A DNA stretch of 64,000 nt from an uncultured delta proteobacterium (GTDB lineage Bacteria > Desulfobacterota > Binatia > UBA9968), in assembly GCA_963727625.1 (NCBI GenBank), contig CAVSHR010000004.1:352001-416000 (forward strand), read 5' to 3'. The notes below the pieces were generated by a model. The model ran no database searches. It was not told the DNA's origin and worked only from the letters and a program-made list of their open reading frames with translations. A program made the position numbers and the translations under genes. Each line of letters starts with the position of its first letter. The stretch's first letter is position 1. This document shows positions 8,480-29,722 of the stretch, piece after piece.

Positions 8480-8537
8480 GAGAAACAAAGCGTTGCGAGC
8501 ACCAACCATCGCGGCAAAAACAACTTTAACGTTAGAT
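8480..8537 (-). other. Possible degenerate terminal attC of array 1
   Basis: Minus strand ATCTAAC...imperfect hairpin...GTTTCTC, 58 bp, abutting the rpiR stop. Confidence 0.35.
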
Positions 8538-8599
8538 CAGATCTCCACAAGCGCACGCCGGAAAAAACAGCCGTTTCGGCGCGCGCGACGACCACGTGC

Positions 8600-9460
8600 T
8601 CAGCCCAGCTCGAACGACGTGACGCCGAAGATCTCGACGTCCGGCAACTCCGGGATCGGGCCGAGCACCATGCGCGCGCAGCCGAAGACCTCCTTCATGC
8701 CGTGGCGTCCTGCCAGAGCCAGCGCTTCACGGTTGACCTCCGGCACGTCCAGGAAGATTGGCTCGCCCGGGACCCGCGAGGCCAGGGCCACGAAGAGCCG
8801 CTCGGCCAACGCGGCGTTCGCCGCGAACAGCGGGCCGATTTTGTGGCCGGTCCGGCACGGCCGCATGACCGCGTAGCCGCGCACCCTGTCACCTTCGAGA
8901 GCGGCCACGGCATGTCCGCCAGGGCGGCGAATCCAGCCACGCAGGAACCGGCTGCGCGACGCGGGAAAGTGCCGGCGATCGCAGGCTTCGATGGGTTCGA
9001 AAGGAAGGGAGCTCGCCTCGACGACGCCCGCCTGCGGCGGCGCTTCCCTGCCTCGTCCCTCGAAGCGCAGGTCGCGGCAGACAAAGCGGAAGCCGCCGCG
9101 GGTGTAGTATTCCTGCATGTTGAACACCCCGTCCATGCCGATGCACGCGTCCGCGTCGAGGCGCTCCAACAGGCGCCGCTTGCGCTCGTTCCAGAGGAGA
9201 TTGCCCAGGCCGCGCCCGCGGTAGCCGGGCCGCATGATGAAGAAGCCCATGAAACCATAGCGCTTTTCGTAAGCGACGATCGAGCCTCCGCCGACCAGCT
9301 CGCCGCCCATCTCGGCGGCGATGAACCCCTCCGGGTCAGTGGCCCAGAAGATCTCGGCATCGTCGAGGCCTGGGTTCCAACCCTCGCGCGCCGCCCATTC
9401 AACCAGCGTATCCAGCTCGCCGCGGGTCATGCGGCGAATTTTCATCTCCTCAGAGGCCAT
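8600..9460 (-). CDS. GNAT family N-acetyltransferase (YitH-like, two domains)
   Basis: WAAREGWNP, PGYRGRGLG, KIGPLFA. Confidence 0.85.
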   Translation of the reverse strand: MASEEMKIRRMTRGELDTLVEWAAREGWNPGLDDAEIFWATDPEGFIAAEMGGELVGGGSIVAYEKRYGFMGFFIMRPGYRGRGLGNLLWNERKRRLLERLDADACIGMDGVFNMQEYYTRGGFRFVCRDLRFEGRGREAPPQAGVVEASSLPFEPIEACDRRHFPASRSRFLRGWIRRPGGHAVAALEGDRVRGYAVMRPCRTGHKIGPLFAANAALAERLFVALASRVPGEPIFLDVPEVNREALALAGRHGMKEVFGCARMVLGPIPELPDVEIFGVTSFELG

Positions 9461-9525
9461 CAGTCCGTGCTCCTGCCGTTAAGATAAGAAATATCCCTTC
9501 ACTAATACGAACGTTATCGTGCAAC

Positions 9526-9553
9526 ATGCTATGCGCGGGTTCTCGCGTGTCAA
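9526..9553 (-). promoter_or_regulatory. Sigma70 promoter for the GNAT gene
   Basis: TTGACA-16-TAGCAT on minus strand. Confidence 0.5.
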
Positions 9554-9565
9554 CGGACCTGCCCA

Positions 9566-10945
9566 TCACCTGCGGCGCGAGGCGCCGTCAGGTGCATCGG
9601 CATGATAGGCCGCGCTTCCCAATGATTCGAGTCTTTTGTAAGCCGCGAGTGGATTTGTAAGTCGTTTCACGAAGTAGATAAAGACTCCGGTCAACAGAAG
9701 GTTCAGCGCGAGACTGAGCATCGAGATAGTCACGATCGGCCCGCCGATTCCATAACTCATCGAGATGACCAGGACGCCAGCGCCCACCTCGCCGCGAGGC
9801 CACATGCCGATCGCGAGGGCGAGTCGCTCCCGCCAATGCGCCTCTCGTCGATAACAAAACGCTGGGAACATCTTGCCGAGGTTGGAAATCAAAGTGACGG
9901 CGAGGACGTGCAGAATGATCTGAGGCCACCCCATGGGTGGCTGGGCGGCGGTGACGCGTCCAACTTGCTGCAAGCTCCCGATTTCGGCCGCCGCAGCCTC
10001 TGCTGCGGGAGCGCCAGCCCCGTGCAAACTGGGTTCGATAGTTTCGGCCATCGCTCCCCCTTGCACCGCGAGGTCCTCCACGAGAATCATGGGCATGGAA
10101 AGGCCGACGAGAACCATGAACACCGCGGCGACAATCGTGGTGACGCGCCTCTCGACAAGCGTTTCGAGCTCGTGGTGGGCGTCGCGCCCGTCGCCTCTAC
10201 CGCTTGTGCCATGCCCCGGATACGCCATGATGCACCCGATCACGAAGGCCGGGAGCAGTACCTCGATGTGAATGGGCACAGACTCATCGATCAGCTTGGA
10301 GCCCCTGTACACCAGCTCGCTGACGGTACTGATTACAACGCCATACGCAAGGACCCAAGGCCATGAAATGGGGATGCGGACGCGGTGCAGGAACGCGAAC
10401 GCGATCGCAAGCATGGTGCCCATCACCACCACGACCAGGCCGAGCTGCCAGGCCAGGCCAACCATCAGCATCTTGAGCGGTATCATCAACAGTACGGTGT
10501 CCAAGTCATCGAAGATGGCCAAGATTCGCGCCTTGCGGAACAGCCACGTCGCACCCAGCCCGGCCGCGGCGAGCATCGAGAACAGCACGCCCGCCGACGT
10601 CGGCGCTGCGAATCGCCCGGCGAGTAGAGTCTCCCGCCATGCGGCCAGAGTTGCCCAGGAGTCCGGCGGAAGCAGGACGAAGACGAGGTACGCCGTCACA
10701 AGGATCCACGGCAAGCTCGCAGCCGTGAACGCTACGGCGTAGTCCCAGCCGTACTGCCTAAGGTTCGACCTGTCGATATCGAATTCATAGCCGACACGAA
10801 TCATGATGAACGACAAGCCTGTCATGGTTGAGATGCGGATGACGTCATCGAGGCCCTCGTACGCGGCACCAATGGCCTCGGGCAGCCACTGCGATCCGAT
10901 CAGGCCGCTCAGGAGCAGCATCGAGAACAGCAGCACCTTTCTCAT
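9566..10945 (-). CDS. Cation:proton antiporter (Na+/H+ exchanger-like), integron cassette gene
   Basis: Multiple TM helices; AIFDDL, GK, PRGEVG motifs; preceded by attC core GTTAGGC. Confidence 0.75.
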   Translation of the reverse strand: MRKVLLFSMLLLSGLIGSQWLPEAIGAAYEGLDDVIRISTMTGLSFIMIRVGYEFDIDRSNLRQYGWDYAVAFTAASLPWILVTAYLVFVLLPPDSWATLAAWRETLLAGRFAAPTSAGVLFSMLAAAGLGATWLFRKARILAIFDDLDTVLLMIPLKMLMVGLAWQLGLVVVVMGTMLAIAFAFLHRVRIPISWPWVLAYGVVISTVSELVYRGSKLIDESVPIHIEVLLPAFVIGCIMAYPGHGTSGRGDGRDAHHELETLVERRVTTIVAAVFMVLVGLSMPMILVEDLAVQGGAMAETIEPSLHGAGAPAAEAAAAEIGSLQQVGRVTAAQPPMGWPQIILHVLAVTLISNLGKMFPAFCYRREAHWRERLALAIGMWPRGEVGAGVLVISMSYGIGGPIVTISMLSLALNLLLTGVFIYFVKRLTNPLAAYKRLESLGSAAYHADAPDGASRRR

Positions 10946-11007
10946 CGCAGCGATTCGTTCCCTTCTTCTGGCGTTTCCGTTTGCGGGCTGTAGTTGCCAC
11001 CTGCGCG

Positions 11008-11066
11008 GCCTAACGCTATGGGTGCAAGGCGCGTTCCACCGCGTTCTTCTCTAACCATGGTTAGCC
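11008..11066 (-). other. attC site (59 bp)
   Basis: Plus strand GCCTAAC...GTTAGCC. Confidence 0.65.
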
Positions 11067-11082
11067 TGGGTTCGTCTGCGCA

Positions 11083-11890
11083 AAAACGGGGTCAGAGAAC
11101 TTTTTCAATCCGAATCCCAGGCATCTTCCTAGGCCGGCCACGGGCTTCACCGACTAATCGTCGCCCAGTCATCGCCTCCACCTGTTTCTGAAACGTTTCT
11201 CGCCCAATCAAACGACCCCGCTGCGTTGCCTGGCGAATTTTATCCCATTCCATTTCGTCGCATTGCCTTTCTATCCACTCTCGATATTTGTCTTGTCTCT
11301 CGTCCGCAGTCAATCCCAATCCTTCGTACCAAGGATCCACATCCAGCAAACGATCCGAGATGCCCAATGCCCGGCTCCGATAACTACTCCAACGATAATC
11401 CCTCGGATGCTTCACAAGACAAGCTCTCACCGGATTCAGCTCAATATACCTGCTACACGCTATCAGGTATTCGTCACGACTGACCGCTGCGCTCTTAAAC
11501 CTTCCCTCCCACAACGTACCCGTACGACCATAAGTTTCATTCACGTATCGAACATATCGTCGTCCTACGCTCTGCATGAATCGACCGAGGCCACCAGCTT
11601 CTGCGGGTTCTACCAGCAGATGGAAATGATTCGTCATTAGAACGTACGCATCAATCCTGCAATGACATTTGACTTTGGCCTGTCGGAGACATTCCAAGAA
11701 GAATCGATAATCGTCGTCGGCAAAAAAGCTCGCGGCTCGATTGTTTCCGCGCTGAATAATGTGCTGGGGATAAGCGGGAATCGTGATTCGACGCAACCGC
11801 GCCATGGAATAACTCGATGTCTGCGAGTTTTGCCAGAAACTATCGCTAGATTAGAGCGTCGTCAAAGAAAAAGTTCTCTGACCCCGTTTT
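11083..11890 (-). mobile_element. RAYT-type element with perfect 23-bp inverted repeats inside a cassette
   Basis: AAAACGGGGTCAGAGAACTTTTT (11083-11105) and AAAAAGTTCTCTGACCCCGTTTT (11868-11890). Confidence 0.8.
11092..11805 (-). CDS. REP-associated tyrosine transposase (HUH, Y1)
   Basis: HIIQRGNNR, YVLMTNHFHLL (HUH), LWEGRF, RYIELNPVRA, WSSY. Confidence 0.9.
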   Translation of the reverse strand: MARLRRITIPAYPQHIIQRGNNRAASFFADDDYRFFLECLRQAKVKCHCRIDAYVLMTNHFHLLVEPAEAGGLGRFMQSVGRRYVRYVNETYGRTGTLWEGRFKSAAVSRDEYLIACSRYIELNPVRACLVKHPRDYRWSSYRSRALGISDRLLDVDPWYEGLGLTADERQDKYREWIERQCDEMEWDKIRQATQRGRLIGRETFQKQVEAMTGRRLVGEARGRPRKMPGIRIEKVL

Positions 11891-12114
11891 CCCTTTGAAG
11901 ACGAAACGGAAGCCGGCCCTGTATACTCCTTTGCCCGCTGGTGCGAAGCGTCCGCCGAGCCGGACCAAGGAAAGGTTCTTCGAACCGGCGATAAGGAACA
12001 GGCTCTTTCCCGAGCGTCGAAAGTTCGGCGCGAGACGGTTCGCGACTTCGGCCTCGAAAATCGCGTCGTAGTCCTCGCGTCTCACACCTGTCTCTCAAGG
12101 TCCCGACTTGGGGC

Positions 12115-12195
12115 GGCCAACGTTAAGGCTGAGAAGCCGCGGCCCGCGAGCCTTGCGAGCGGGTCCGTAGGTCTGTCTCAAGCCGCTTGTTAGGC
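12115..12195 (-). other. attC site (81 bp)
   Basis: GGCCAAC...GGCTGAGA...TCTCAAGCC...GTTAGGC imperfect palindrome. Confidence 0.85.
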
Positions 12196-12858
12196 GTCAT
12201 TGTGCCCTTGGCGCCGGAGTACAACATGGGTGGCTTTCTCCGACGCAACGAACTGAACGCATTCGTATCCCAGAGCGCGCACGTCAATCCCCTCGAACAG
12301 TCGCTCTCCCCCGCCCAGCAGGACCGGCGAGATAGCGACGTGCAGCTCATCGATGAGGCCCGTACGAAGATATTGCTGGATAGTGTTAGGTCCGCCGCCA
12401 ATGCGTATATCCATTCCGTTCGCTGCGTCGCGCGCCCGGTCAAGCGCCTCGTGAATACCGCCCGTGACGAAGTAGAATGTCGTTCCGCCTTCCATCTGGA
12501 TGGGCGGGCGCGCGTGATGAGTCAAGATGAAAGTTGGAACGTGATAAGGTGGGTTGTCCCCCCACCAGCCTTTCCAGTTCATGTCGGGCCAGGAACCGCG
12601 AATCGGTCCGAACATGTTTCTTCCGAGAATCCAGGCGCCAACATTCTTGAAGCCCCGCGCAGCGAAGTCGTCATCGATCCCCGTTGTGCCACCATCGGCG
12701 CCAAATAGGGTCCGTTGTAACGTGCGTGTCGGGACTAACCACTGATGCAAATCTGTCCCGCCCACGCCGAGCGGATTCCTGATGTCCTGATTCGGACCAG
12801 CTCCGTATCCGTCAAGCGAGATGGTAAAGCCCTCAACTCGGACGCGTGTCATTTTCAT
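12190..12858 (-). CDS. Dihydrofolate reductase / RibD C-terminal domain protein, cassette gene
   Basis: ISLDGY, ILGRNMF, IGGG, IDELHVAISPVLLGGGERLF. Confidence 0.9.
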   Translation of the reverse strand: MKMTRVRVEGFTISLDGYGAGPNQDIRNPLGVGGTDLHQWLVPTRTLQRTLFGADGGTTGIDDDFAARGFKNVGAWILGRNMFGPIRGSWPDMNWKGWWGDNPPYHVPTFILTHHARPPIQMEGGTTFYFVTGGIHEALDRARDAANGMDIRIGGGPNTIQQYLRTGLIDELHVAISPVLLGGGERLFEGIDVRALGYECVQFVASEKATHVVLRRQGHNDA

Positions 12859-12876
12859 GCCTTCCTTTCGATTGAC

Positions 12877-12963
12877 GCCTAACGCGATGCGGCTAAGCGG
12901 TGGCGAAGAAGGCTAGCTTTAAGGCGAGCGTTTTCACCATCAGGCTTAAGGCGCTGGTTCGGG
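12877..12963 (-). other. attC site (87 bp)
   Basis: GCCTAAC...GCTAAGC...GCTTAAGGC...GTTCGGG. Confidence 0.75.
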
Positions 12964-13512
12964 CGATGAACGCCGCAAGGCATTATGACGTGCAACGCGA
13001 GATCTGCTACCGCTGGAAACCAGATACCTCGCCATGTTGTCGACGTCATTCGAATACACCTCAACAACTGTATAAACCAAACTGCTCTTTGGTGCTTTCG
13101 ACGACTCACCGTGTCCGTTGAGAGAAATAACTTCTCCGTGAATAAGTGCGACGCGGTCGCCCACCTGAAACCTCTCAGAATTCGCCACCTGATACCATGG
13201 TCGCCCAAGTTGTTTCCAACAAAGTCTCAGATAATCTTCAATTGTTTCGTAAAGCAACGACTTCTGCTCCTCCACCTGGGAGGAGAATGCCACATCGGTC
13301 AACGATCCCATACCGCCGTAGATATTCTCAACTTGTCGCCCAAGAGAATATTTTTCTTCCCAGTTGTCAGCGTTTGTCTCCAATCTAGCCGCCACGGCGG
13401 CGAAGCGGCCTAATGTTTCCGCCCAATGCGGACTTTCCTGCAGAATGGTAGTCGAGAGAACTTGAAGCTGCTCGAACAATGACCTCTCCGCGGTATGTTC
13501 TGAATGCGCCAT
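12946..13512 (-). CDS. Hypothetical cassette protein (DUF6966-like N-terminus)
   Basis: IYGGMGSLTD motif; bounded by attC sites. Confidence 0.6.
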   Translation of the reverse strand: MAHSEHTAERSLFEQLQVLSTTILQESPHWAETLGRFAAVAARLETNADNWEEKYSLGRQVENIYGGMGSLTDVAFSSQVEEQKSLLYETIEDYLRLCWKQLGRPWYQVANSERFQVGDRVALIHGEVISLNGHGESSKAPKSSLVYTVVEVYSNDVDNMARYLVSSGSRSRVARHNALRRSSPEPAP

Positions 13513-13533
13513 AATCAGGTGCGATAGTTTGCG

Positions 13534-13614
13534 CCCTAACGAATCAAGCTGAAAGGACGAGACCAGCGAGCGCAGTGAGCGGGTCGAAGATCCGTCTCAA
13601 GCCGATCGTTAGAT
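13534..13614 (-). other. attC site (81 bp)
   Basis: CCCTAAC...GCTGAAAGGA...TCCGTCTCAAGC...GTTAGAT. Confidence 0.85.
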
Positions 13615-13623
13615 GGTGGAGCA

Positions 13624-14289
13624 CTACAAAAACTCGACATAGTCTAGCTTACGAGCAAGATCTACGGGTAAAAAATCGTCGTCCAACCATTGGCTTGGCT
13701 TACCTGTAACGATTACCACAAACCGAAATTCATTTTCTGTGCTGAAAATAGCAGGCTTTTGTGAATAAGACAGTGGCACCGAGGCGACCGTGAGTTGGTG
13801 CAGAGACTTCTCTCCTTTGTTGTACTGCACCACGCATCCTTTGACGCCTCCGCTAAATCCATAAGGGAGTGTTTCCACGAAAGCGCAAATATCATCGGCA
13901 AACTGCCTCGGCTGTTTGATTTTAACAACCCACGGCCCAAAACGCTGTCTTAGCAAATCGATGTCTACACTTGGAAGCGAGCAACTGAATATGAACTTCG
14001 GGTTCAGGAGTTCAATATGACTGTGAACGTATCCAGGTTGAGTCAGAGTCGTTGTCTCGACTGAATCGCGTGAAAAATCCACGGAGGTCACCATTCCATA
14101 GCGCTGGAAATGCCCCTGGCCTTCCGACGAGTCTTTTCGGTTCTCATCTTCAATCTCAGTGTAAATTCTTAGATTGCCCATACGGAATCTGCCGTGCTCC
14201 ACGAAGGCTTCTGCGTATGCTCTTTCTTTGAAGGCACGGAAGACAACTTTAAGAGAGTTTCCGATTGCATGGAGTTTTTTGTCCATCAT
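13624..14289 (-). CDS. Hypothetical cassette protein (DUF2971-like, possible ADP-ribosyltransferase fold)
   Basis: FR..., D..EG, IFSCS, VQY, K..F..ENEFRF motif series. Confidence 0.5.
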   Translation of the reverse strand: MMDKKLHAIGNSLKVVFRAFKERAYAEAFVEHGRFRMGNLRIYTEIEDENRKDSSEGQGHFQRYGMVTSVDFSRDSVETTTLTQPGYVHSHIELLNPKFIFSCSLPSVDIDLLRQRFGPWVVKIKQPRQFADDICAFVETLPYGFSGGVKGCVVQYNKGEKSLHQLTVASVPLSYSQKPAIFSTENEFRFVVIVTGKPSQWLDDDFLPVDLARKLDYVEFL

Positions 14290-14302
14290 CGTGCTGGAAT
14301 CG

Positions 14303-14402
14303 GTCTAACGGCTTGCCGCTCAGCCGCGAGCGGCGCGAAACATCAACTTTCAGATCGGCCATACCCACACGCGCCGATCGGCGGCTCAGCTGCTTGTTAG
14401 AC
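14303..14402 (-). other. attC site (100 bp)
   Basis: GTCTAAC...GCTCAGCCGC...GCGGCTCAGC...GTTAGAC. Confidence 0.85.
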
Positions 14403-14834
14403 CGCCTCCAAGCGTGCTTCGCCATTGGCGTCTTCAGGTATCCGCTTAAGTTCGTCGATAAATCTGTCGAGAAGAACGGGCTCCGAGCACAGGTACATCG
14501 TTGCACGGCTTGCCACCGTCTTTTTGCCGAATTCCCTAAAGTCAGACTCTTGCTCGCAAGTAATGAAAAGCCTTCCAGGCTTCGGAAAGTGAAACCGAGC
14601 ATGAAAGGCACCGTTACCGTACTCACAACCAAACTCACCGAAGCGGACTTCCAAAAGCCCTCCGTAAACATGCGATTTGAAAGCATCGAGATTTGCGATC
14701 GTTTCTGCGAGGTCACGGAACCCTACGTAGACTCGGTTTGCAAAACGGGACGTACCGTCAGCCACCTCGATGGTGAGCTCGACCATGTCGTCGTCGGACC
14801 ACACTCTGGATATGCGTATTCCTTGTTCCATCAT
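14397..14834 (-). CDS. Hypothetical cassette protein
   Basis: ORF fills the cassette; stop lies within the inverse core site. Confidence 0.7.
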   Translation of the reverse strand: MMEQGIRISRVWSDDDMVELTIEVADGTSRFANRVYVGFRDLAETIANLDAFKSHVYGGLLEVRFGEFGCEYGNGAFHARFHFPKPGRLFITCEQESDFREFGKKTVASRATMYLCSEPVLLDRFIDELKRIPEDANGEARLEAV

Positions 14835-14856
14835 GGCGTCGATTCTGTCGGTCTAA

Positions 14857-14908
14857 CGGGTCGGCTTACCCGTCGACCCGTTCGCACGACCGTCTGCGGT
14901 CGGGCGAA
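14857..14908 (-). other. 52-bp ORF-less micro-cassette with a 36-bp mini attC-like hairpin
   Basis: Lies between core sites GTTCGCC and GTTAGAC; internal inverse core TGCGAAC; two hairpins. Confidence 0.6.
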
Positions 14909-14998
14909 CGACAGAACTGACCGACGCGGGCGGTCAGTGACGTCCGAATTGGAAACTGACGCGGCCCGCCCGCGTTCGGTCCAGTGATCTGGTTCGGC
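14903..14998 (-). other. attC site (96 bp)
   Basis: GGCGAAC...ACTGACCGACGCGGGCGG...CCGCCCGCGTTCGGTCCAGT...GTTCGGC. Confidence 0.85.
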
Positions 14999-15005
14999 GT
15001 TCCCG

Positions 15006-15341
15006 TCATGAGTAGAATGAGAGCGCCAGAACCGCTGGCTCTCCCTTTTCGATCCTCCGCCAATTCACGAATGCGGAGCACTCGACCAGCGCATCGTAAA
15101 TCTCCGAGCATCTCTTCCTCAAGCCGCCGACGTCAGAAACGCACAAGACAAGCACATCTCCCGGTGCGACGTGAACAGAACTCAAGCCGTCGTCCGGTGC
15201 ATCCAAGGAAGTCATGCAATCATTCCAAGCGTCCATGTTCCGGCCGTAGAATCCAGGAAAGCCGAGCGCCTGCGAGAACTGATCGTGAAACGAATCCCAA
15301 TCGGTGATTTTGCTGCCGTCGATCTGAATGTTCTTGGGCAT
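15006..15341 (-). CDS. Barstar family protein, cassette gene
   Basis: IDGSKI.DW.SFH..F...LGFPGFYGRNMDAWNDCM. Confidence 0.9.
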   Translation of the reverse strand: MPKNIQIDGSKITDWDSFHDQFSQALGFPGFYGRNMDAWNDCMTSLDAPDDGLSSVHVAPGDVLVLCVSDVGGLRKRCSEIYDALVECSAFVNWRRIEKGEPAVLALSFYS

Positions 15342-15355
15342 CGCGATGCTCTTAC

Positions 15356-15448
15356 GCCGAACGACAAAACTCACCGACGCCGGGCCGAAGATGCTCGCCT
15401 TGGAACCGCAGCGCAATCCCGGCGTTCGGTGCAGTGATTTTGTTCGGC
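15356..15448 (-). other. attC site (93 bp)
   Basis: GCCGAAC...CACCGACGCCGGG...CCCGGCGTTCGGTG...GTTCGGC. Confidence 0.85.
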
Positions 15449-16021
15449 ACGTCCGTCCTCTCGGTACCAAGCGAGTAAGCCCAACAGCCCTGCTTGACTA
15501 CCGTGCCGTGCTATCATCTTGGTCGTGCCGTCGAGAAATCCACAAACGAGCTCTGTGAAAATATCGAGAGCTTCGAATCCCTTCGGAACTGGCTCCCCTG
15601 CGGCTTTGCGCCAGATGCTGATGCTTTCGGCGATGTGAGCCAAATCCTTATCGGTCGGAACATAATCGAGGCGATGCGCAACCTTGTTCCGCATTGCATT
15701 CAGCGCCTTCATCCCGGCGACGAAAAAGTGGAAATTGGCTTGGGGGTGGTCTGCAAGGTCAATCTTCTGAGCAAACGTGAGCCTTGCAGAACCGATTCCC
15801 GGAGACGCAGGATTTGCCGCCTCAAGGTAAGCAGTGAGGAAGTGCTCAAGAACAAGGTGACACTTAAGAATCATCAGCTTGGCTGAGTGGTCAGTGCTCC
15901 ATAGATGCCTATAGTGCGATTTGAACGCGTGGAAATCAGCCTCGATCTGGGGAGCGTCCGCAAGGAGCTTCCGGAAGACAGGTGACTTCTTGAATTCCTT
16001 CCTGAGGCTATCGGTGCTCAT
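15371..16021 (-). CDS. HEPN-like domain protein, cassette gene
   Basis: HLVLEHFL...LTFAQKIDL...LNAMRNKVAH (Rx4H); start set to MSTDS inside the cassette. Confidence 0.65.
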   Translation of the reverse strand: MSTDSLRKEFKKSPVFRKLLADAPQIEADFHAFKSHYRHLWSTDHSAKLMILKCHLVLEHFLTAYLEAANPASPGIGSARLTFAQKIDLADHPQANFHFFVAGMKALNAMRNKVAHRLDYVPTDKDLAHIAESISIWRKAAGEPVPKGFEALDIFTELVCGFLDGTTKMIARHGSQAGLLGLLAWYREDGRAEQNHCTERRDCAAVPRRASSARRR

Positions 16022-16041
16022 GGTGTGTTCAGATTTCTGCT

Positions 16042-16104
16042 GCCGAACGTCATGAATCAGGCTCTTCGGCGCTAGCCGAAATAGCCTGGATTCAGTTGTT
16101 CGCA
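16042..16104 (-). other. attC site (63 bp)
   Basis: GCCGAAC..TGAATCAGGCT.TTCGGC..GCCGAA.AGCCTGGATTCA..GTTCGCA. Confidence 0.85.
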
Positions 16105-17141
16105 TTATTCTTGGCGGCCTTCTTCGTCGCCGGTGCTGGCAGAAGGCGGAGTTGATCCACGGTCTTCTGGAGTTGCCGAACTTCCGTGAAGATGTCGTCA
16201 ACTCCCTTCTCTGCGTCTGCTGAAGAAGGACAGTCAACACGCCCACCCTTGTCGATGAAGACGAACAGATTGCGAATGCCGAGGCTGACGCCGTTGATTA
16301 CATCGCCGACTGGTTTCGGTTTCATCCCGGCAGTGAGTTCTCCGGTGATCTCCTGTGCCGATTTATCGGAGAATGCGTCAGCTTCGGCCTCCAGATCCTT
16401 CTCGATTTGCTTGTTCTCCAACTTCAGCTTCTTGATCTCCTGCACCTGCTTCCTGATGCTCAAGTACTTTTCAACGCGTGCAAGGACACAGTCCACGGCC
16501 TTGCCAACCATGAGGACTAGGCTGCAGGCTGTTGCAACGTCGATGATGAGAGGAGAAGACTTCTGAACAAACACGATCCTGGAGCTTTCAGGCTTCTCGT
16601 CGACCAGTTGGCTGAAAGCCCGAATGATCTTCGTCCATGAGTCAATCCATCCCTCAAATTCAACGATGTTGTCCACTGCCGCCTTCTCTGTGAAGGTGAT
16701 CTCAAGAAGGGCTTCGCCCTTTTGCAGAGCAACATCCTTGAGCGTGGGAATTCGCTGAAGGGCCGATTGAAGATTGCGGTTCCTCTCGAGGAACTGCTGG
16801 AAAGCCTTCTGTTTGGCATCCACTTTCTGAATCACGCCTTGGGGGTCGAAGTTCTCGTCGTACAGTATCGCCTCAAGCTCGCGGACCCCGGCGTCACCAA
16901 CGTACTCGCCGTATCCCAGCACATCGAACAGGTGAGTTTCGCTGTAGGTAAACGATATCTGATCGAATGAACGCAGCGCGCTGAACAGTTGGTCTTTCTG
17001 TTGAGATACTGGTTGTTGCCGGTTGTTGCGGAGCGAGTTGGCGAGAATCTGAAGAAACTGCTCATACAACTGCTCCGCTTTGCTCTTCTGTATGTGTTCC
17101 ACGAGTTTCGTGGCAAGCGTCTTCAGATCATCAACCTTCAT
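16092..17141 (-). CDS. Hypothetical 349-aa cassette protein
   Basis: Long ORF with AG-rich RBS, fills the cassette; coiled-coil-like segment. Confidence 0.75.
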   Translation of the reverse strand: MKVDDLKTLATKLVEHIQKSKAEQLYEQFLQILANSLRNNRQQPVSQQKDQLFSALRSFDQISFTYSETHLFDVLGYGEYVGDAGVRELEAILYDENFDPQGVIQKVDAKQKAFQQFLERNRNLQSALQRIPTLKDVALQKGEALLEITFTEKAAVDNIVEFEGWIDSWTKIIRAFSQLVDEKPESSRIVFVQKSSPLIIDVATACSLVLMVGKAVDCVLARVEKYLSIRKQVQEIKKLKLENKQIEKDLEAEADAFSDKSAQEITGELTAGMKPKPVGDVINGVSLGIRNLFVFIDKGGRVDCPSSADAEKGVDDIFTEVRQLQKTVDQLRLLPAPATKKAAKNNANN

Positions 17142-17160
17142 CGTGTCTTTCTCCTCTCAA

Positions 17161-17241
17161 TGCGAACGCTACGGCTGAACGGACAAGGCCAGCGAGCGCA
17201 GCGAGCGGGTCCGACGATCCGTTTCAAGCCGTTTGTTAGGC
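17161..17241 (-). other. attC site (81 bp)
   Basis: TGCGAAC...CGGCTGAACGGA...TCCGTTTCAAGCCG...GTTAGGC. Confidence 0.9.
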
Positions 17242-17955
17242 CACTCGCGGTGCACACGCCGCTGCCCAGAGAGCAACACTTGCATAAACCCCGACAACCG
17301 ATACTGGAATTGTGAACACGTCACCTTCCCCAAAGGCCCGAACGCCTGCGAGCACAAACCATGAAAGGAGTACCATTAAAAACGCCGTGGCCACCACACC
17401 CTTGGAGCCCCGTGGAACTTGTAAAACGGCGACCGGCAGTCTCACTCCGCGCGTTGAGAGATACCAACCGCATAGCACAAAGGGAAAACCAAGCACACAA
17501 AAGAACACGCTCCCTGCGATTGGGATTGCAATATTGTCCGCCCACCACGGATAGTCTCCACGCTCAAGTGTATATTGCAGCCACAGCAACTGTGCCGGAA
17601 CCCAACCCCACCATGCTGCGGTTGCCATCCAGAACATTCCTCGCCGAGTTGCTAGTGTCCCTAAATGAAACAGATCTCGAAACGTTCGAAGTCGAAGCAT
17701 GAGAAAAAGAGCAGCAATCGACACTCCGAGACTGATTACCGCGGCACCATGGTCCGAGCGTATGGCGGCTGGAGTCAAATTGTTAGCCTGTGCTTCGTAG
17801 AATTTCCGGGACAGATCGCCGGAAAGGTCGCGAGACACGTCCGCGGTCTCGAATTCCCGACGCCAACTTGGATCTGCGTACCTTGACTCGTCGACCGTCG
17901 GAGCAATGAGAATGATTCCGAAAAGTATGATGGCAATTGGGATGGAATAAACCAT
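17236..17955 (-). CDS. Hypothetical membrane protein, cassette gene
   Basis: About 6 hydrophobic segments; fills the cassette. Confidence 0.7.
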   Translation of the reverse strand: MVYSIPIAIILFGIILIAPTVDESRYADPSWRREFETADVSRDLSGDLSRKFYEAQANNLTPAAIRSDHGAAVISLGVSIAALFLMLRLRTFRDLFHLGTLATRRGMFWMATAAWWGWVPAQLLWLQYTLERGDYPWWADNIAIPIAGSVFFCVLGFPFVLCGWYLSTRGVRLPVAVLQVPRGSKGVVATAFLMVLLSWFVLAGVRAFGEGDVFTIPVSVVGVYASVALWAAACAPRVA

Positions 17956-17963
17956 TGTTGTTG

Positions 17964-18034
17964 GCCTAACGCTAGGTTAAGCCGCGCCGAACGAGCGCAG
18001 CGAGCGAGACGTCGGCTTGAACCGTTTGTTAGCC
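17964..18034 (-). other. attC site (71 bp)
   Basis: GCCTAAC..GGTTAAGCCG...CGGCTTGAACC..GTTAGCC. Confidence 0.9.
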
Positions 18035-18140
18035 GCCATGTTCTTCGCGGTTCATCTGCGGTCGATCTCCGGTACGGCGCTGGACGATCCTTCCAACCGC
18101 CGCGCTGATGTGGCGACGTAACCCCGCCGCCGTAGCGCCA

Positions 18141-18758: not shown

Positions 18759-18782
18759 TCAACCTCCCGGTAACGCCTTGGC

Positions 18783-18811: not shown

Positions 18812-18844
18812 TTTACAGTCTCTAAAATTCGAATGACGGCGGAA

Positions 18845-21232: not shown

Positions 21233-21266
21233 GGTTCAAGACGTTCAAACCGTTCAAAAAGTTAAG
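21233..21266 (+). repeat. 9-bp-period GTTCAA tandem array
   Basis: GGTTCAAGA CGTTCAAAC CGTTCAAAA AGTTAAG. Confidence 0.75.
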
Positions 21267-21699
21267 CCGTCTCGGATGGGGTCGAAAAGCTCGGACTTTT
21301 TGGACGCTTTGTCGCAGTATATTTTGATCCTTTCATGCCACTGCCCTTTAAGTAGTCAATTAGATTGCTGATCATAATTGATAAACGCCGCAGTGAATTG
21401 CTGGCATCGCTACAGTCTTTCGCCGCTACATACGATTGATCCAGGGCTACGTAAAGTTGACACCGAGCTTCCCCGCACGATCCTTTAGCGACGTAGAGAA
21501 ACTGAATAAACTCTTGGTTGCCGCCCCGTTCGAATCCTTCGGCAATGTTTGACATGATGGAGACAGCCGCTCGGCGAATCTGATCGCGCAATCCGAAATC
21601 TTTTGAGAATTTCGGATCTCTTGTGAGCTGATAAATTGCCCGTGTTAAGGCCCTAGCATCTTTCCAGATTTCCAAATCTTCAAAGTTTTTCACTTGCAT
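21262..21699 (-). CDS. Four-helix-bundle protein (23S rRNA IVP / Avd-like)
   Basis: FEDLEIWK, LRDQIRRAAVSIMSNIAEGFER, F.QFL.VAKGSCGE. Confidence 0.92.
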   Translation of the reverse strand: MQVKNFEDLEIWKDARALTRAIYQLTRDPKFSKDFGLRDQIRRAAVSIMSNIAEGFERGGNQEFIQFLYVAKGSCGEARCQLYVALDQSYVAAKDCSDASNSLRRLSIMISNLIDYLKGSGMKGSKYTATKRPKSPSFSTPSETA

Positions 21700-21711
21700 G
21701 GATGCTCCCTC

Positions 21712-21756
21712 CTAAACAATTTGAACGTTTTGAACGGCTTGAACGATTTGAACGCT
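21712..21756 (-). repeat. 9-bp-period TTGAAC tandem array, inverted relative to 21233-21266
   Basis: TTGAACGTT TTGAACGGC TTGAACGAT TTGAACGCT. Confidence 0.8.
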
Positions 21757-23862: not shown

Positions 23863-23922
23863 GGATAGAAACTCCGGGAAAGTTGTCTGCACTGAGCAGG
23901 ACGTAAAAAATGAGATCAGCAA

Positions 23923-23938
23923 CTGACAACAGCTTCAG
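23923..23938. promoter_or_regulatory. Putative LexA box upstream of imuA
   Basis: CTGACAACAGCTTCAG = CTG-N10-CAG, similar to the lexA operator. Confidence 0.6.
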
Positions 23939-23982
23939 GACGGTATGATTGCGGAGCTGCTAAAGGACAGTAACGTCGCGTT

Positions 23983-24038
23983 TGCAGGAATGTAGTTGCA
24001 GGAATGTAGTCGCAGGAATGTAGTCGCAGGAATGTAGA
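23983..24038. repeat. 4 x 14-bp tandem repeat
   Basis: (T/C)GCAGGAATGTAGT x4, no spacers. Confidence 0.9.
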
Positions 24039-24052
24039 AAAGGGAGAGCTTT

Positions 24053-24137
24053 ATTTAACGCTCAAAATGAGCCGTGCGCCACGGCGACATGATCGCGATG
24101 GACGGTCAGGCGCGTCGGCTCCGTTTTGTTGTTAGCC
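24053..24137 (-). other. attC site (85 bp), last of array 2
   Basis: ATTTAAC..CAAAATGAGCCG.GCGCC...GGCGC..CGGCTCCGTTTTG..GTTAGCC. Confidence 0.85.
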
Positions 24138-24164
24138 CGCGACGCTGGTTCTTCATGCCAATGT

Positions 24165-24713
24165 TCACCGACTCTGAAGGCTCAACCGCGCCACAACGTC
24201 GCTCAGGTAGTCACCGTATCCCCAACCTATGTCCTGCGCACGGTTCCGAACCCGAACGAGACGAGCGGTTGCGCGCGTGCGTTCCTCACTGGAGAGTGCC
24301 CCCAGTGATTTCACGATGGCAGCCACCTTTGTCTCAAGCGCTGAAAAGTACGGATCATCGCCGTACCCAAGGTCGACCGCTTGCTCTGTTCCGGCCTCCA
24401 CAAACGTCAGCATCAGATCAACGCTTCCGGCGACATCACCAGTCGAACGACGATATTCTGTGATCGCCGCACTGGCGTCCCGAAGCCGAATCGGACGCTG
24501 GCTCAGGGGATCCGGAAATACCGCAACCTCGACCAAGTGCCGGTACTTCTCAATCGCCGCGGCCGAAGGAAGAAACCGCGCTTCAAGAAAACGTCGATTT
24601 GCCTCGCTTGCCTCGTGCATGTCGTGAACCAGGCCCACCAGTGCCTTTCGATCAAGGGTATCCAGCCGATTCTTCAGTGCGGCCCAACCAGAACTCTTCA
24701 ACACACGGTTCAC
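24165..24713 (-). CDS. Hypothetical cassette protein (DUF6155-like)
   Basis: A.AAITEYRR..GD....DLMLTFVEAG...GYG pattern. Confidence 0.6.
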   Translation of the reverse strand: MNRVLKSSGWAALKNRLDTLDRKALVGLVHDMHEASEANRRFLEARFLPSAAAIEKYRHLVEVAVFPDPLSQRPIRLRDASAAITEYRRSTGDVAGSVDLMLTFVEAGTEQAVDLGYGDDPYFSALETKVAAIVKSLGALSSEERTRATARLVRVRNRAQDIGWGYGDYLSDVVARLSLQSR

Positions 24714-24750
24714 TCTGAGATCCTCGAATTCGAATGAATGATGTTTTGCG

Positions 24751-24807
24751 GGCTAACGCGAAGGCTGAGCGGAGTCTTTAACGCCGATCTCAAGCCGTTA
24801 GTTAGGC
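24751..24807 (-). other. attC site (57 bp)
   Basis: GGCTAAC..GGCTGAGCGG...CCGATCTCAAGCC..GTTAGGC. Confidence 0.85.
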
Positions 24808-24813
24808 GATGAG

Positions 24814-25107
24814 TCAGGCGGCCAATTTCACGGCGACTGAGACACCAGCCTTTGCGCACAGGCCCACGAGGTAGTCCAGAGACAGCTTGTCAACCTTGTT
24901 GCGCGCGATTTCGGAGATGCGGGGCTGGACAATGCCAAGGCGCTTGGCGGCTTCCACCTGGGTAATCCCCTCACGCTCCATCCACTTACGAAGCGCTTCG
25001 GCCAACTCGCAACGCAAAAGCATCACAGCGGCCTCATGCGGTGGGAAGCCGAGATCGAGGAACAGGTTTTTAGAGCCCTTCACTTGCCGTGCTTGCTTCT
25101 TCTTCAT
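24814..25107 (-). CDS. XRE-family HTH antitoxin
   Basis: GSKNLFLDLGF, TQVEAAKRLGIVQPRISEI...LSLDYL. Confidence 0.88.
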   Translation of the reverse strand: MKKKQARQVKGSKNLFLDLGFPPHEAAVMLLRCELAEALRKWMEREGITQVEAAKRLGIVQPRISEIARNKVDKLSLDYLVGLCAKAGVSVAVKLAA

Positions 25108-25427
25108 GTCTTCTCTCCGATTAACTTGTAACGCTGCGCTGCCAGCCTAATGTCCGCCTGGGCCGTCTTTCGGGTCTTCTTCTGAAAAGCGTGCAAGACA
25201 AAAACCGCTTTCTCGAACTTGGCGACGTACACGACGCGGAACGCCCCGGCGGTATCTCGTATCCGAATTTCGTAGGCTCCGGATCCAACCGTCGGAAGCG
25301 GTTTGAAATCCGCGGGTTCACGCCCGACTTGGACCATGAACAGCTCGTAGCCGGCTTGTCGACGCACCGACTCGGGAAAGGCCGCCAAGTCGCGACGAGC
25401 TGTGCCAAGAAAGCGAACCGGCCTCAT
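25104..25427 (-). CDS. RelE/ParE (Gp49-like) toxin
   Basis: DL.AFP, DFKP..TVG.G.YEIRI, VLHAFQKKTRKT. Confidence 0.9.
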   Translation of the reverse strand: MRPVRFLGTARRDLAAFPESVRRQAGYELFMVQVGREPADFKPLPTVGSGAYEIRIRDTAGAFRVVYVAKFEKAVFVLHAFQKKTRKTAQADIRLAAQRYKLIGEKT

Positions 25428-25435
25428 CTCGATGG

Positions 25436-25464
25436 ATTATACGAATAGTCGTATGCACTTGCAA
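25436..25464 (-). promoter_or_regulatory. Cassette-internal TA promoter and operator
   Basis: TTGCAA-17-TATAAT overlapping palindrome ATACGA-N4-TCGTAT. Confidence 0.7.
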
Positions 25465-25474
25465 GTGGCCGCAC

Positions 25475-25538
25475 GTCTAACGAGATGCTTCAGGCGCGCG
25501 TTGCTTTGAACGCGTCGCTCTGAAAGCAATGGTTATGC
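25475..25538 (-). other. attC site (64 bp)
   Basis: GTCTAAC..TGCTTCAG.CGCGCGTT...AACGCG..CTGAAAGCA..GTTATGC. Confidence 0.85.
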
Positions 25539-25829
25539 TGCTGTAAGCCTGACCTTGCCAACTTTCCCGAGCTTTACGCGCTGTTTCGCCTGCCACAAGT
25601 CATAGTTGCATTGCATGGCAAGCCAACTTTCAGGAGAACGTCCCAACGCCTTGGAAAGACGCAGCGCCATCTCAGGACTGACCGCGCTAGTTCCAATAAG
25701 GATGCGATGTAAAGTAGAAGCAGCCACTCCAAGCTTGCTCGCCAGTTCGCGAGCGCTCAGATTGTTGGGCTCCAGATAAACCTCGGCAATGAACTCGCCT
25801 GGATGAGGGGGATTGTGCATAGCCATCAA
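25533..25829 (-). CDS. higA: HigA antitoxin
   Basis: MHNPPHPGEFI...SPEMALRLSKALG.SPESWL.MQ. Confidence 0.92.
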   Translation of the reverse strand: MMAMHNPPHPGEFIAEVYLEPNNLSARELASKLGVAASTLHRILIGTSAVSPEMALRLSKALGRSPESWLAMQCNYDLWQAKQRVKLGKVGKVRLTAA

Positions 25830-26104
25830 TGATAATCCTCGTAGTCTAAAATATAAGCGTGTCCGTCTCTGAACTCAAAAGTTAAACGCCAGTTTCCGTT
25901 CACCCACACCGACCAACGGCCACGCTCCGCTCCCTTCAGCGGATGCAGGCGAAACCCAGGAACGTTCATATCTTCAACAGACTGGGCCGTGTCCAGAGCG
26001 ACCAAAAGCATCCGAAGCCGCTTTCCGTGATGGGGTTGAATACCCGCTGCAATTCCGGATTCAAAGAACTTTCTCAGCCCCTTGTGCCGGAATGATTGAA
26101 TCAT
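25826..26104 (-). CDS. higB: HigB toxin
   Basis: MIQSFRHKGL, PGFRLHPLKG, WSVWVNGNWRLTFEF..DYH. Confidence 0.93.
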   Translation of the reverse strand: MIQSFRHKGLRKFFESGIAAGIQPHHGKRLRMLLVALDTAQSVEDMNVPGFRLHPLKGAERGRWSVWVNGNWRLTFEFRDGHAYILDYEDYH

Positions 26105-26110
26105 GCGCCA

Positions 26111-26140
26111 ATAATAGCTTGTTGCGCATCACGCAACAAG
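26111..26140 (-). promoter_or_regulatory. higBA promoter and operator
   Basis: TTGTTG-17-TATTAT; palindrome CTTGTTGCG-N5-CGCAACAAG. Confidence 0.65.
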
Positions 26141-26148
26141 ACCAAGTA

Positions 26149-26277
26149 GTATAACGCGAAGCTGAGCGGGAGGCGAGGAACGGCATAATATATAGACGCA
26201 GCAATTTGAACTTATAAGCTACCAGTCGTTCAAACGTTAAAAGCTTCTCGCCGATCCGTTCAAGCGAATGGTTATGC
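26149..26277 (-). other. attC site (129 bp)
   Basis: GTATAAC..GCTGAGCGG.AGGCGAG...CTCGCCGATCCGTTCAAGC..GTTATGC. Confidence 0.85.
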
Positions 26278-26754
26278 ATTAGCACCACCAGAGCACGCTT
26301 TCTTTACAAACGGTTGAAGTAGCAAAAGCAACAAGAGACCGCTAACTACACCGATAATAAAGGCTGGCCACATGCTTACATAAACTTCAACCGCCCCATC
26401 CGGAAGAGGTGGTATAGGGACGTCTCGGAACTGATAACTTAGAATCGCGAACTTCACGGTCTCGTATAACTCCAGTAGGAACAAGATAGAACAAACTGCC
26501 AGCGCCAATCTTCGTCCCCACGGCCTAAGTTTGAATAATCCGTAAGCAGACACGAAGGCAGCGGCGGGAAGAAAAACACTCCATCCCAAAGACAAAATAA
26601 CAAACCAGATGTAATCCAAATCCACATTAGAGCAATTTACGAGACATCGTAAGGCCAACCAAATTCCACGAGATCCGGCGAGGACCATCCACAAACCGTA
26701 AGCGCCCAAAATAACAGTGATAAACTGAACTACGTAAGATCTATTTTGGAGCAT
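26272..26754 (-). CDS. Hypothetical 4-TM membrane protein, first cassette of array 2
   Basis: Four hydrophobic helices; ATG overlaps the core site. Confidence 0.7.
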   Translation of the reverse strand: MLQNRSYVVQFITVILGAYGLWMVLAGSRGIWLALRCLVNCSNVDLDYIWFVILSLGWSVFLPAAAFVSAYGLFKLRPWGRRLALAVCSILFLLELYETVKFAILSYQFRDVPIPPLPDGAVEVYVSMWPAFIIGVVSGLLLLLLLQPFVKKACSGGANA

Positions 26755-26780
26755 AACTTGTGATTATACTGACCAGTGTA
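26751..26780 (-). other. attI site of integron 2
   Basis: Core GTTATGC matches the cassette inverse core GCATAAC; CTGACCAG at the same 11-nt offset as in attI-1. Confidence 0.72.
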
Positions 26781-26811
26781 ATAACTTTCTTGAAATCACT
26801 CACGACGGCCA

Positions 26812-26840
26812 ATTTCTACAAGCGTTCCAATACCTGTCAA
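26812..26840 (-). promoter_or_regulatory. Pc cassette promoter, integron 2
   Basis: TTGACA-16/17-TAGAAAT at essentially the same distance from the core as in integron 1. Confidence 0.6.
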
Positions 26841-26897
26841 CTGTTTTAAAAACGTCGGAAAACTCCATACACTGGTCAGTGTATGAATATTACACTG

Positions 26898-28683: not shown

Positions 28684-28845
28684 ACATTACTGCGTCGTTT
28701 CGAAGCAATTAAAATGCACCTACAACGATAGCCGCTGCTTTGAGGTCGGTACCACAACGAATCCTGAAAAACTAGCCAAACATTAGATGGGCTTCCGCCC
28801 ACACTGCATCGAACCGTTCCAGGAGAGAAGTTTCGAAGTTTGACA

Positions 28846-28936
28846 GTTTCAATCGTTCCAACGGTTCGAATGGTTCAATCCGGTCGAATCTGTTTAAACG
28901 ACTGGAACGTTTTGAACGACTTGAACGATTGGAACT
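28846..28936. repeat. Inverted pair of 9-bp-period arrays just downstream of lexA
   Basis: GTTTCAATC GTTCCAACG GTTCGAATG GTTCAATCC ... TGGAACGTT TTGAACGAC TTGAACGAT TGGAAC. Confidence 0.75.
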
Positions 28937-28937
28937 C

Positions 28938-29546
28938 CTAGAATTTTCTCAATAACCCGACGACCTTCCCAGCGATGCGAAACTCTCCCTGTGAAACGGT
29001 AATCGGGGCGTATTTTTCATTTTCCGCTTTAAGCGTGACGACACCGTCTTTTTTAAAAAATCGCTTTAACGTCGCCTCGCCGTCGATCACGGCGCAGACG
29101 ATCTCGCCGTTTTCCGCCCCTGCCTGTTGCTTCACGATCACCCGGTCGCCGTCCATGATGCCGGCGCCGATCATGCTGTCGCCTTTGACTTGGAGCGCGA
29201 AAGTTTTCCCGCTGCTCATGTCGTCGGGGATGGTGATGACGCCTTCAATATTTTCTTCGCTGAGAAAGGGTTTACCGGCGGGCACCCGGCCCAAAACCGG
29301 CGCTTCCCGAGTAGCGGTTAGAGCCGCTTTCCCTAAGGCGTTGACGACTTCGATGGCGCGCTTGCCGACCCGGCGGATGTAGCCCTTCTTTTCCAAGGCT
29401 TTCAGATGGTCGGAGACACCGTTGGTCGAGGCGATCTTGAAGCGCCGGCCGATCTCGTGGATCGACGGCGCGAAGCCCTTTTCTCGGATAGTCTTCAGCA
29501 GAAAATCGTAGATCGCCTTTTGCCGGTCGGTGAGCGATGGAAGCAT
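28938..29546 (-). CDS. lexA: SOS repressor LexA
   Basis: LTDRQ..IYDF, PS..EI, HLKALEKKGYI, GRVPAG cleavage site, GDSM, EATLKR. Confidence 0.96.
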   Translation of the reverse strand: MLPSLTDRQKAIYDFLLKTIREKGFAPSIHEIGRRFKIASTNGVSDHLKALEKKGYIRRVGKRAIEVVNALGKAALTATREAPVLGRVPAGKPFLSEENIEGVITIPDDMSSGKTFALQVKGDSMIGAGIMDGDRVIVKQQAGAENGEIVCAVIDGEATLKRFFKKDGVVTLKAENEKYAPITVSQGEFRIAGKVVGLLRKF

Positions 29547-29557
29547 GAAAGCTTGTA

Positions 29558-29577
29558 TACTGAAAATATTTTCAGTA
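29558..29577. promoter_or_regulatory. LexA operator within the lexA promoter spacer
   Basis: Perfect palindrome TACTGAAAATATTTTCAGTA within TTGACT-17-TATACA. Confidence 0.85.
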
Positions 29578-29612
29578 GTCAAGACGTGGCGGAAAGCGCG
29601 CAGGAACGTGCT

Positions 29613-29722
29613 CGTTCAAGGGTTCGAGGTTCAAAAGCTCAAGGGCTTAAACCGTGCTTCTAACGCGGTTATCGGACAATCCCAGTCCGGCCCTGAACCT
29701 TGAACAATTGAACTTTTGAACG
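29613..29722. repeat. Inverted pair of 7-8-bp-period GTTCAA/TTGAAC arrays
   Basis: GTTCAAGG GTTCGAG GTTCAAAA GCTCAAGG ... CTGAACC TTGAACAA TTGAACTT TTGAACG. Confidence 0.7.

Follow-up and report, generated by a model that had tools for sequence, protein, structure and literature searches.

The idea that the SOS response controls integron integrases is central to accounts of how bacteria adapt faster under stress. The original report of LexA-repressed integron integrase promoters is said to be that of Guerin et al. in 2009 and, to our knowledge, SOS control of integrases is known only in the form of a LexA box in the promoter of the integrase gene (intI) itself. Here we ask whether an integrase can be coupled to DNA damage through its place in an operon. 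The question is raised by a 64,000-nt stretch from the genome of an uncultured delta proteobacterium of soil type (hereafter the window), in which an integron lies downstream of lexA and of the mutagenesis genes imuA and imuB, all on the minus strand. We propose that a sedentary chromosomal integron was embedded ancestrally in the lexA-imuA-imuB operon and that its integrase gains SOS control by co-transcription, a reading to which we assign a probability of about 0.6.

Gene identities come from Pfam and NCBIfam scans of the minus-strand open reading frames (ORFs) of the window. Positions are window coordinates unless prefixed: G000 is the genome itself, other G numbers are genomes of its order, and L numbers are fetched loci. 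In the direction of transcription we find lexA, tcmP, a DUF5131 gene, an intI relic, a putative attI region (attI-2), four cassettes, imuA, imuB, a four-helix-bundle (4HB) gene, higA, a 59-aa ORF, hicB, hicA, a partial higA copy, intI, a second putative attI region (attI-1) and about eight cassettes. The scans thus bear out the order from lexA to intI that had been proposed earlier from the letters of the window alone (the original prediction), and the proposed anatomy holds: lexA, imuA and imuB alternate with two integron platforms, all in the same orientation. The count of four upstream cassettes stands, but the downstream array, thought to hold about 12 cassettes and to reach position 8480, has about eight and ends at 11008. 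The polymerase gene dnaE2, a member of the conserved mutagenesis cassette that the original prediction cited, is not in the region and lies on the same strand 36 kb beyond imuB.

Only one lexA was found in the genome. Its product has the S24 peptidase and winged-helix domains, and an operator lies at its own promoter: the perfect LexA box TACTGAAAATATTTTCAGTA fills the 17-nt spacer between the -35 element TTGACT and the -10 element TATACA. This box is the sole perfect A+T-rich TACTG-N10-CAGTA in the 6.6-Mb genome and is kept in all 15 loci of the family that hold lexA; five sister-family loci are without it, and their LexA proteins are only 32-34% identical. Upstream of intI we observe no TACTG-N10-CAGTA with two or fewer mismatches, in the genome itself or in any fetched relative. 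The original prediction saw no CTG-N10-CAG directly before intI; the sole one nearby lies 90 nt before the gene (20102-20121; another copy is at 20984) and belongs to the coding sequence of higA. We reject both copies as LexA boxes: they encode the YWLDLQ motif of higA and have a G+C-rich centre. Of the two LexA boxes originally called, the one before lexA is real, but the one before imuA (23921-23939) is rejected: it is unique to this genome, four relatives having CGA or CGG in place of CAG, and is probably a chance match. No such site is found at recA either, where the best candidate has mismatches at 6 of 16 positions. A second perfect CTGAAA-N4-TTTCAG core in the genome (C5:246702) was considered as an extra SOS unit and discarded, since its neighbours (a DUF6282 gene, unknown ORFs and a PAS-GGDEF gene) are non-SOS genes. 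As a separate observation, the sequence GCCTGAAAAATGTTACAGAT at 7273-7292 has one mismatch to the family LexA core; it lies downstream of the array, with a small ORF on one side and a gene for a luciferase-like monooxygenase on the other.

The downstream integrase is intact. Against the solved structure of IntI4 (2a3v; 5e-90, residues 40-351) IntI can be aligned from end to end, with no large gap through a segment of 20 residues, and it has the integron-specific extra segment. The likely start is the ATG at 20012, which stands behind an AAGGAGG site, 15 nt past the stop of the partial higA copy, and from which the IntI proteins of relatives align onward. The block 3' of intI consists of a palindrome, the promoter-like element TTGACA-N17-nAnAAT, a second palindrome and CAATG/GTTAGCC. 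Similarity between genomes stops at the GTT of the putative crossover, and this layout is kept in most of 14 aligned relatives. The intI relic of the upstream platform, called in the original prediction, is tiny (nine residues) but real, and the DNA 3' of it is homologous to the DNA 3' of intact intI. Its own DNA gives a 30-nt match, 80% identical to 18995-19024, and in both platforms the DNA that follows carries a palindrome, TTGACA-N17-(n)A(n)AAT, a palindrome and a GTTA crossover. The upstream platform is without a working integrase.

Linkage of intI to mutasome genes in and outside the order

The order was sampled with 123 genomes, 83 of which have imuB orthologues and 33 an IntI match over the curated cut-off; the unpublished G005 and G093 were dropped, leaving 31. 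Pairing the IntI table with the imuB table, we counted intI and imuB as linked if they share contig and strand and lie less than 5 kb apart. By this definition 16 of the 31 genomes are linked (G000, G006, G012, G014, G018, G063, G066, G068, G071, G074, G077, G078, G107, G109, G119 and G120), and G073 and G080 have an intI fragment at the linked position. Together these 18 genomes span 12 genera of the family. In most of the remaining IntI genomes intI or imuB is on a short contig, so that linkage cannot be judged there. The linkage is thus not peculiar to this assembly, which the original prediction had named as a way in which it might fail.

The gene orders differ between families. All five loci of a sister family have the canonical lexA-imuA-imuB-dnaE2 without intI, and both loci of another family have imuA-imuB-dnaE2-intI with a broken intI. 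In the family of our genome, G078 has lexA-imuA-imuB-intI, G074 and G063 have lexA-4HB-imuA-imuB-intI, and the others have the same genes plus 4HB, higA or tcmP-DUF5131. In the compact relatives the spacers of lexA-imuA-imuB-intI measure 65-260 nt, and the imuB-intI spacer of G074 (about 65 nt) ends in a ribosome-binding site. All inserted genes identified by similarity in the 20-odd loci are co-oriented with the operon. The double-platform layout recurs in G014, where one full intI follows lexA and another follows imuB; in G018 a single intI lies after lexA, and the tcmP-DUF5131 pair directly precedes intI or an intI remnant in G012, G017, G073 and G120. A full-length open intI is retained in 13 of the 16 linked genomes, and intI is broken in G027, G029, G073, G119 and G120.

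dnaE2 does not directly follow imuB here; it adjoins imuB in sister families and in G008. Its distance from intI was taken in G000 and five searched genomes: in the three of these six where both genes share a contig (G000, G014 and G077), dnaE2 lies on the same strand 24-33 kb beyond intI. About 1 kb before dnaE2 there is a partial second copy of the gene's 5' end (G000:C4:337493-338494; L001:5490-6494). A 128-aa ORF separates the two copies; at the DNA level it shares 87-89% identity with sequence that precedes imuA in G014 and G019, compared with about 77% for neighbouring genes.

Outside the order, IntI is present in 133 of 401 sampled genomes of the phylum. We also collected the 80 best IntI loci from other named metagenome-assembled genomes (MAGs), in 55 of which the sequence extends 3 kb or more upstream of intI. 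In four of these best 80 loci (L002, L014, L071 and L080) imuB or dnaE2 lies beside intI on the same strand, intI coming after dnaE2 in L071 and before it in L080; in L056 dnaE2 is 9 kb from intI on the other strand. Given its presence across the family, its absence from the 80 genomes examined among the 131 other IntI genomes of the phylum and the scattered MAG cases, the linkage is therefore lineage-specific here and sporadic elsewhere.

Proposed co-transcription and its alternatives

The compact relatives keep what we take to be the ancestral form: intI comes fourth, next to imuB and co-oriented with it, and behind it lie the putative attI with its cassette promoter and then the array. As the array grew, the integron would have displaced dnaE2 downstream. 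DNA damage would lead to self-cleavage of LexA and de-repression of the single LexA-boxed promoter at lexA, which probably drives lexA-imuA-imuB-intI as one damage-inducible unit. Transcription through imuA-imuB into intI would turn on translesion mutagenesis and cassette recombination together, and the cassettes would be transcribed from the separate promoter downstream of intI. This genome would then be an expanded, partly eroded, looser and derived form, with a second platform between lexA and imuA. The integrase of that platform is destroyed next to tcmP-DUF5131, and selfish modules (4HB, higA, hicBA) lie between imuB and intI.

Several observations weigh against this proposal. The relatives are kin, and the family-wide count is largely one inherited event. 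G003, G021 and G008 have no intI within 12 kb after imuB. Among the 131 other IntI genomes of the phylum, 80 were examined, and four of these have a clear ImuB, none near intI. In this genome 5.7 kb separate the lexA promoter from imuA and 9.6 kb separate it from intI, and the path to intI crosses a hairpin like those of repetitive extragenic palindromes (REP), two toxin-antitoxin cassettes with promoter-like sites, the promoter-like site before hicB and a putative cassette promoter. No conserved LexA box lies in the imuA leader, which furthermore begins at an attC-type junction. With 9.6 kb and these promoters in between, coupling here may therefore be weaker than in the compact relatives, and any of the intervening elements could uncouple the integrase gene from LexA. 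For imuAB and intI to be under SOS control here, read-through would be needed; otherwise control may have passed to the cassette promoter of the relic or to the toxin-antitoxin promoters. In favour of the proposal, the strong terminators between modules that the original prediction had named as a possible objection are not in excess, with 24 intrinsic terminator-like sites and 23.6 expected from shuffled sequence.

We would sooner bet against a broader version, which we put forward tentatively: that the whole LexA regulon of the family is one 'evolvability operon', lexA-imuA-imuB-intI, with intI in the dnaE2 slot, and that the integron machinery also rearranged the mutasome genes. The lexA unit may be the sole LexA-regulated unit in this genome. 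As to rearrangement, the imuA leader begins exactly at R' (GTTAAAT) of the fourth upstream attC, and its homology with G014, G019, G021 and G018 begins at GTTA(A/G); G003 has TTTAAAT there, and in G019 an attC-like site ends at the junction. Genomes with lexA directly before imuA hold only GTTCAA arrays in the spacer. From the start at R' and the shared GTTA(A/G) junction it follows that imuA-imuB sits behind the array as if it were the next cassette. The block may thus resemble a giant terminal cassette of the upstream platform, beginning at an attC-type G/TTA junction here and in several congeners. The leader also carries a 14-bp unit, CTACATTCCTGCNA, in four copies here and in one copy in relatives.

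A rather unlikely alternative, in our view, is that a single ancestral insertion was inherited without regulatory meaning, intI being transcribed locally in this genome, for instance from a hicB or higA-controlled promoter, and independently of LexA. Such a history would sit well with an intI that has no LexA box, with the promoter-like TTGTCA-17-TAGAAT before hicB (20778-20806), with a partial higA copy that ends so close to intI and with the higA-intI coupling seen in G066, G109 and G119; both the common ancestry behind the family count and the lack of linkage among the examined genomes of the phylum also speak for it. It accounts poorly for the tight spacers of compact relatives such as G074, for the uniform orientation of the inserted genes and for the fact that intI joins mutasome genes in other geometries elsewhere, namely in the second family and in L071, L080, L014 and L002.

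We consider it improbable that the operon is a sink for selfish DNA, in which REP-like GTTCAA arrays in the spacers attract insertions and the integron is a decaying passenger. Of the 129 such arrays in the genome, six lie within 8 kb at this locus, at every operon junction, G078 keeps only a short 4HB scar between two arrays (L104:2290-2480), and integrase decay is evident both in the upstream platform and in the five genomes with a broken intI. Against this, the downstream intI is intact, most linked genomes keep a full-length open intI, the putative attI is conserved with its promoter-like element and palindromes, and a sink leaves unexplained why intI rather than other genes recurs beside mutasome genes in other phyla. 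Misassembly or chimeric binning is hardly credible as the origin of the interleaved order. Contamination of the assembly is estimated at 6.3%, and repeats occur at the locus, among them the GTTCAA arrays and a 182-nt duplicate. The contig, however, is 1.65 Mb long, and the imuB-4HB-higA-intI, lexA-then-integron and tcmP-DUF5131-intI remnant junctions are found in independent assemblies (G014, G006, G018, G017, G012 and G073).

Cassette arrays, putative attI regions and inserted modules

Features are collected in Table 1. The name imuA rests on position beside imuB and dnaE2 in relatives, because the RecA and ImuA profiles score only weakly; the imuA and imuB ORFs overlap at 23266-23303.

Table 1. 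Coordinates of features at the lexA-imuA-imuB-intI locus (window positions unless prefixed)
Feature	Position	Strand	Remarks
lexA promoter	29554..29582	-	-35 TTGACT 29577-29582; LexA box 29558-29577; -10 TATACA 29554-29559
lexA	28938-29546	-	202 aa from ATG at 29546; TIGR00498 210 bits (cut-off 111); PF00717 and PF01726
Inverted pair of 9-bp GTTCMAANN arrays (REP-like hairpin) after lexA	28845..28936	-	RNA fold -29.9 kcal/mol, z = -2.5, no U-tract
tcmP	27802-28683	-	TIGR04474 126 bits
DUF5131 gene	27051-27863	-	PF07505 347 bits
intI relic	26938-26964	-	TMIYTHVLS (box II peptide, C-terminal); tblastn 8/9 residues
attI-2 region (putative)	26748..26882	-	palindrome 26869-26882; -35 TTGACA 26835-26840; palindrome 26766-26779; crossover GTTATGC, G at 26757
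Upstream array, 4 cassettes	24053..26757	-	attC 26149-26277, 25475-25538, 24751-24807, 24053-24137
Unknown ORF (upstream array)	26272-26754	-	cassette content
higB / higA (upstream array)	25826-26104 / 25533-25829	-	HigB PF05015, HigA TIGR02607
Gp49/HTH_37 pair (upstream array)	25104-25427 / 24814-25107	-	Gp49 PF05973 with HTH_37
Unknown ORF (upstream array)	24165-24713	-	cassette content
imuA leader	23863..24052	-	starts at attC R' GTTAAAT; 4 tandem 14-bp repeats 23984-24037; CTG-N10-CAG 23921-23939
imuA (RecA-like)	23266-23862	-	PF00154 30.6 bits; NF033429 25 bits (cut-off 150)
imuB (Y-family polymerase-like)	21759-23303	-	PF00817 38.7 bits, over cut-off
In-frame GTTCAA repeat array in imuB	22035-22061	-	
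4HB unit between forward and reverse GTTCAA arrays	21234..21753	-	
4HB gene	21262-21699	-	TIGR02436 115 bits
higA	20908-21204	-	
59-aa ORF	20732-20911	-	
hicB	20522-20719	-	PF15919
hicA	20306-20521	-	PF07927
Partial higA copy	20027-20230	-	182-nt direct repeat, 83% identical to higA
intI, intact integron integrase	18924-20012	-	TIGR02249 467 bits (cut-off 265), model positions 1-314 of 315
attI-1 region (putative)	18780..18915	-	palindrome 18904-18915; promoter -35 18868-18873, -10 18845-18850; palindrome 18799-18810; crossover GTTAGCC, G at 18789
Downstream array, ~8 cassettes	11008..18789	-	7 clear attC and 1 doubtful
Downstream attC sites	17964-18034, 17161-17241, 14851-14887, 14303-14402, 13534-13614, 12877-12952, 12115-12195, 11008-11066	-	
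Methyltransferase (downstream array)	18141-18758	-	
ORF (downstream array)	17236-17955	-	
Barstar-like gene in large unit (downstream array)	15006-15470	-	
ORFs (downstream array)	14397-14834, 13624-14289, 12946-13512	-	
RibD_C gene (downstream array)	12190-12858	-	
IS200/RAYT-like gene (downstream array)	11092-11805	-	NF047646 75.6 bits, just below cut-off 80
dnaE2	G000:C4:334395-337490	same strand as imuB	1031 aa, pol III alpha domains; 36 kb beyond imuB

The attC sites were located not by IntegronFinder but by a heuristic of our own, which combined a pattern-and-fold scan for imperfect palindromes (R'' RYYYAAC ... R' GTTRRRY), a repeat search and manual reading of the intergenic gaps. On its own, the strict RYYYAAC/GTTRRRY scan gives three candidate sites, two of them in the arrays. 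A MAFFT alignment of six attC sites gave no usable consensus structure and hence no covariance model. In all, 12 attC sites were read directly after ORF stops, several from one repeat family; the one at 14851-14887 is doubtful, its 37 nt being too short to be sure. ORFs 9566-10945 and 8600-9460 have no attC after either, and both beyond 11008 and in the 20 kb toward dnaE2 the search for further attC sites gave scan matches only inside long ORFs. Cassette content varies between relatives, which is consistent with turnover. The large cassette at 14866-17141 has the barstar-like gene after two overlapping unknown ORFs (349 and 291 aa), maybe a nuclease toxin with its immunity protein. The gene in the last cassette that resembles an insertion sequence of the IS200 type and a REP-associated tyrosine transposase (RAYT) may relate to the GTTCAA repeat family.

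The putative cassette promoter 3' of intI is flanked by two palindromes on CTGGTCAG/CTGACCAG (18799-18915 and, in the upstream platform, 26766-26882), which are kept in most of the 14 relatives. The consensus of the proximal one, ATACTGGTCAGTAT, contains the LexA half-sites TACTG and CAGTA, but with a spacer of 2 nt instead of 10 nt. HigA is unlikely to be the sole binder of these palindromes, since G074, G078 and G063 retain them without higA. attI-2 is closest to the attI type of G012, and attI-1 resembles that of G071. In a quick IntI tree (91 rows, with support from the Shimodaira-Hasegawa-like approximate likelihood-ratio test, SH-aLRT, only) the two IntI copies of G014 fall into different subclades. 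These split copies and the differing attI types lead us to reject a recent duplication within the genome as the source of both platforms.

Adjacent HigB/HigA, Gp49/HTH_37 and HicB/HicA pairs identify the toxin-antitoxin modules as type II. hicA (20303-20524) continues in the same frame after the hicB stop. No standard start codon (ATG, GTG or TTG) precedes its conserved part, and the gene may be a pseudogene, have an unusual start or need read-through. The 4HB gene follows lexA and/or imuB in most relatives and resembles a small mobile insert; other 4HB copies in this genome have no GTTCAA arrays nearby. Arrays of at least three units of the 9-bp GTTCMAANN family number 129 in the genome; a shuffled sequence of 1 Mb has none. 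At this locus the arrays are at 21234-21260, 21718-21753, 22035-22061, 26996-27022, 28846-28935 and 29610-29720, and the lexA-imuA and imuB-intI spacers of the compact relatives consist of such arrays.

Relation to known SOS-controlled integrons and mutagenesis cassettes

If the proposed co-transcription is real, an intI placed downstream in a LexA-controlled mutasome operon would be a second, structural coupling of cassette shuffling to DNA damage. Point mutagenesis and gene-cassette recombination, the two inducible sources of variation that are known best, would then be joined in one physical unit. In the compact relatives this unit has four genes and an E. coli-type operator, which makes it amenable to direct tests in a laboratory host. 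Our full-text searches, which do not cover subscription journals, gave no description of intI linked to imuAB/dnaE2 or lying inside a mutasome operon.

According to the available part of a 2011 survey, the known SOS-controlled integrons (class 1 and Vibrio cholerae) have a LexA box in the promoter of intI itself, and in chromosomal integrons from soil and freshwater this control is mostly gone (Cambray et al. 2011, PMC3108266). The locus described here is like these systems in that the SOS response is proposed to control the integrase and that the box is of the E. coli CTG-N10-CAG type. As far as that part of the survey goes, intI diverges from the cassettes in those systems and the box is in its promoter (PMC3108266), whereas the loci we examined have no box before intI. 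Control would here come from membership in the lexA-imuA-imuB operon, another route to SOS control.

The imuA-imuB-dnaE2 cassette is often preceded by lexA and is the sole LexA-regulated unit in some organisms, as stated in the accessible portion of PMC3323433. It shares with our locus lexA, a RecA-like imuA, a Y-family imuB and a second pol III alpha, as well as a LexA box at the start of the operon. Measured against what that portion describes, the cassette is split here: intI and its array take the place of dnaE2, dnaE2 is found 24-36 kb downstream, and a second array parts lexA from imuA. Atypical co-oriented integrons have been described in Treponema, and the part of that paper available to us does not describe them as lying in a mutagenesis operon (PMC3607928). 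At our locus co-orientation is what would let transcription of the upstream operon enter intI. An integrase linked to the SOS response by operon embedding, and conserved across a family, would thus be a new form of the known link between SOS and integrons.

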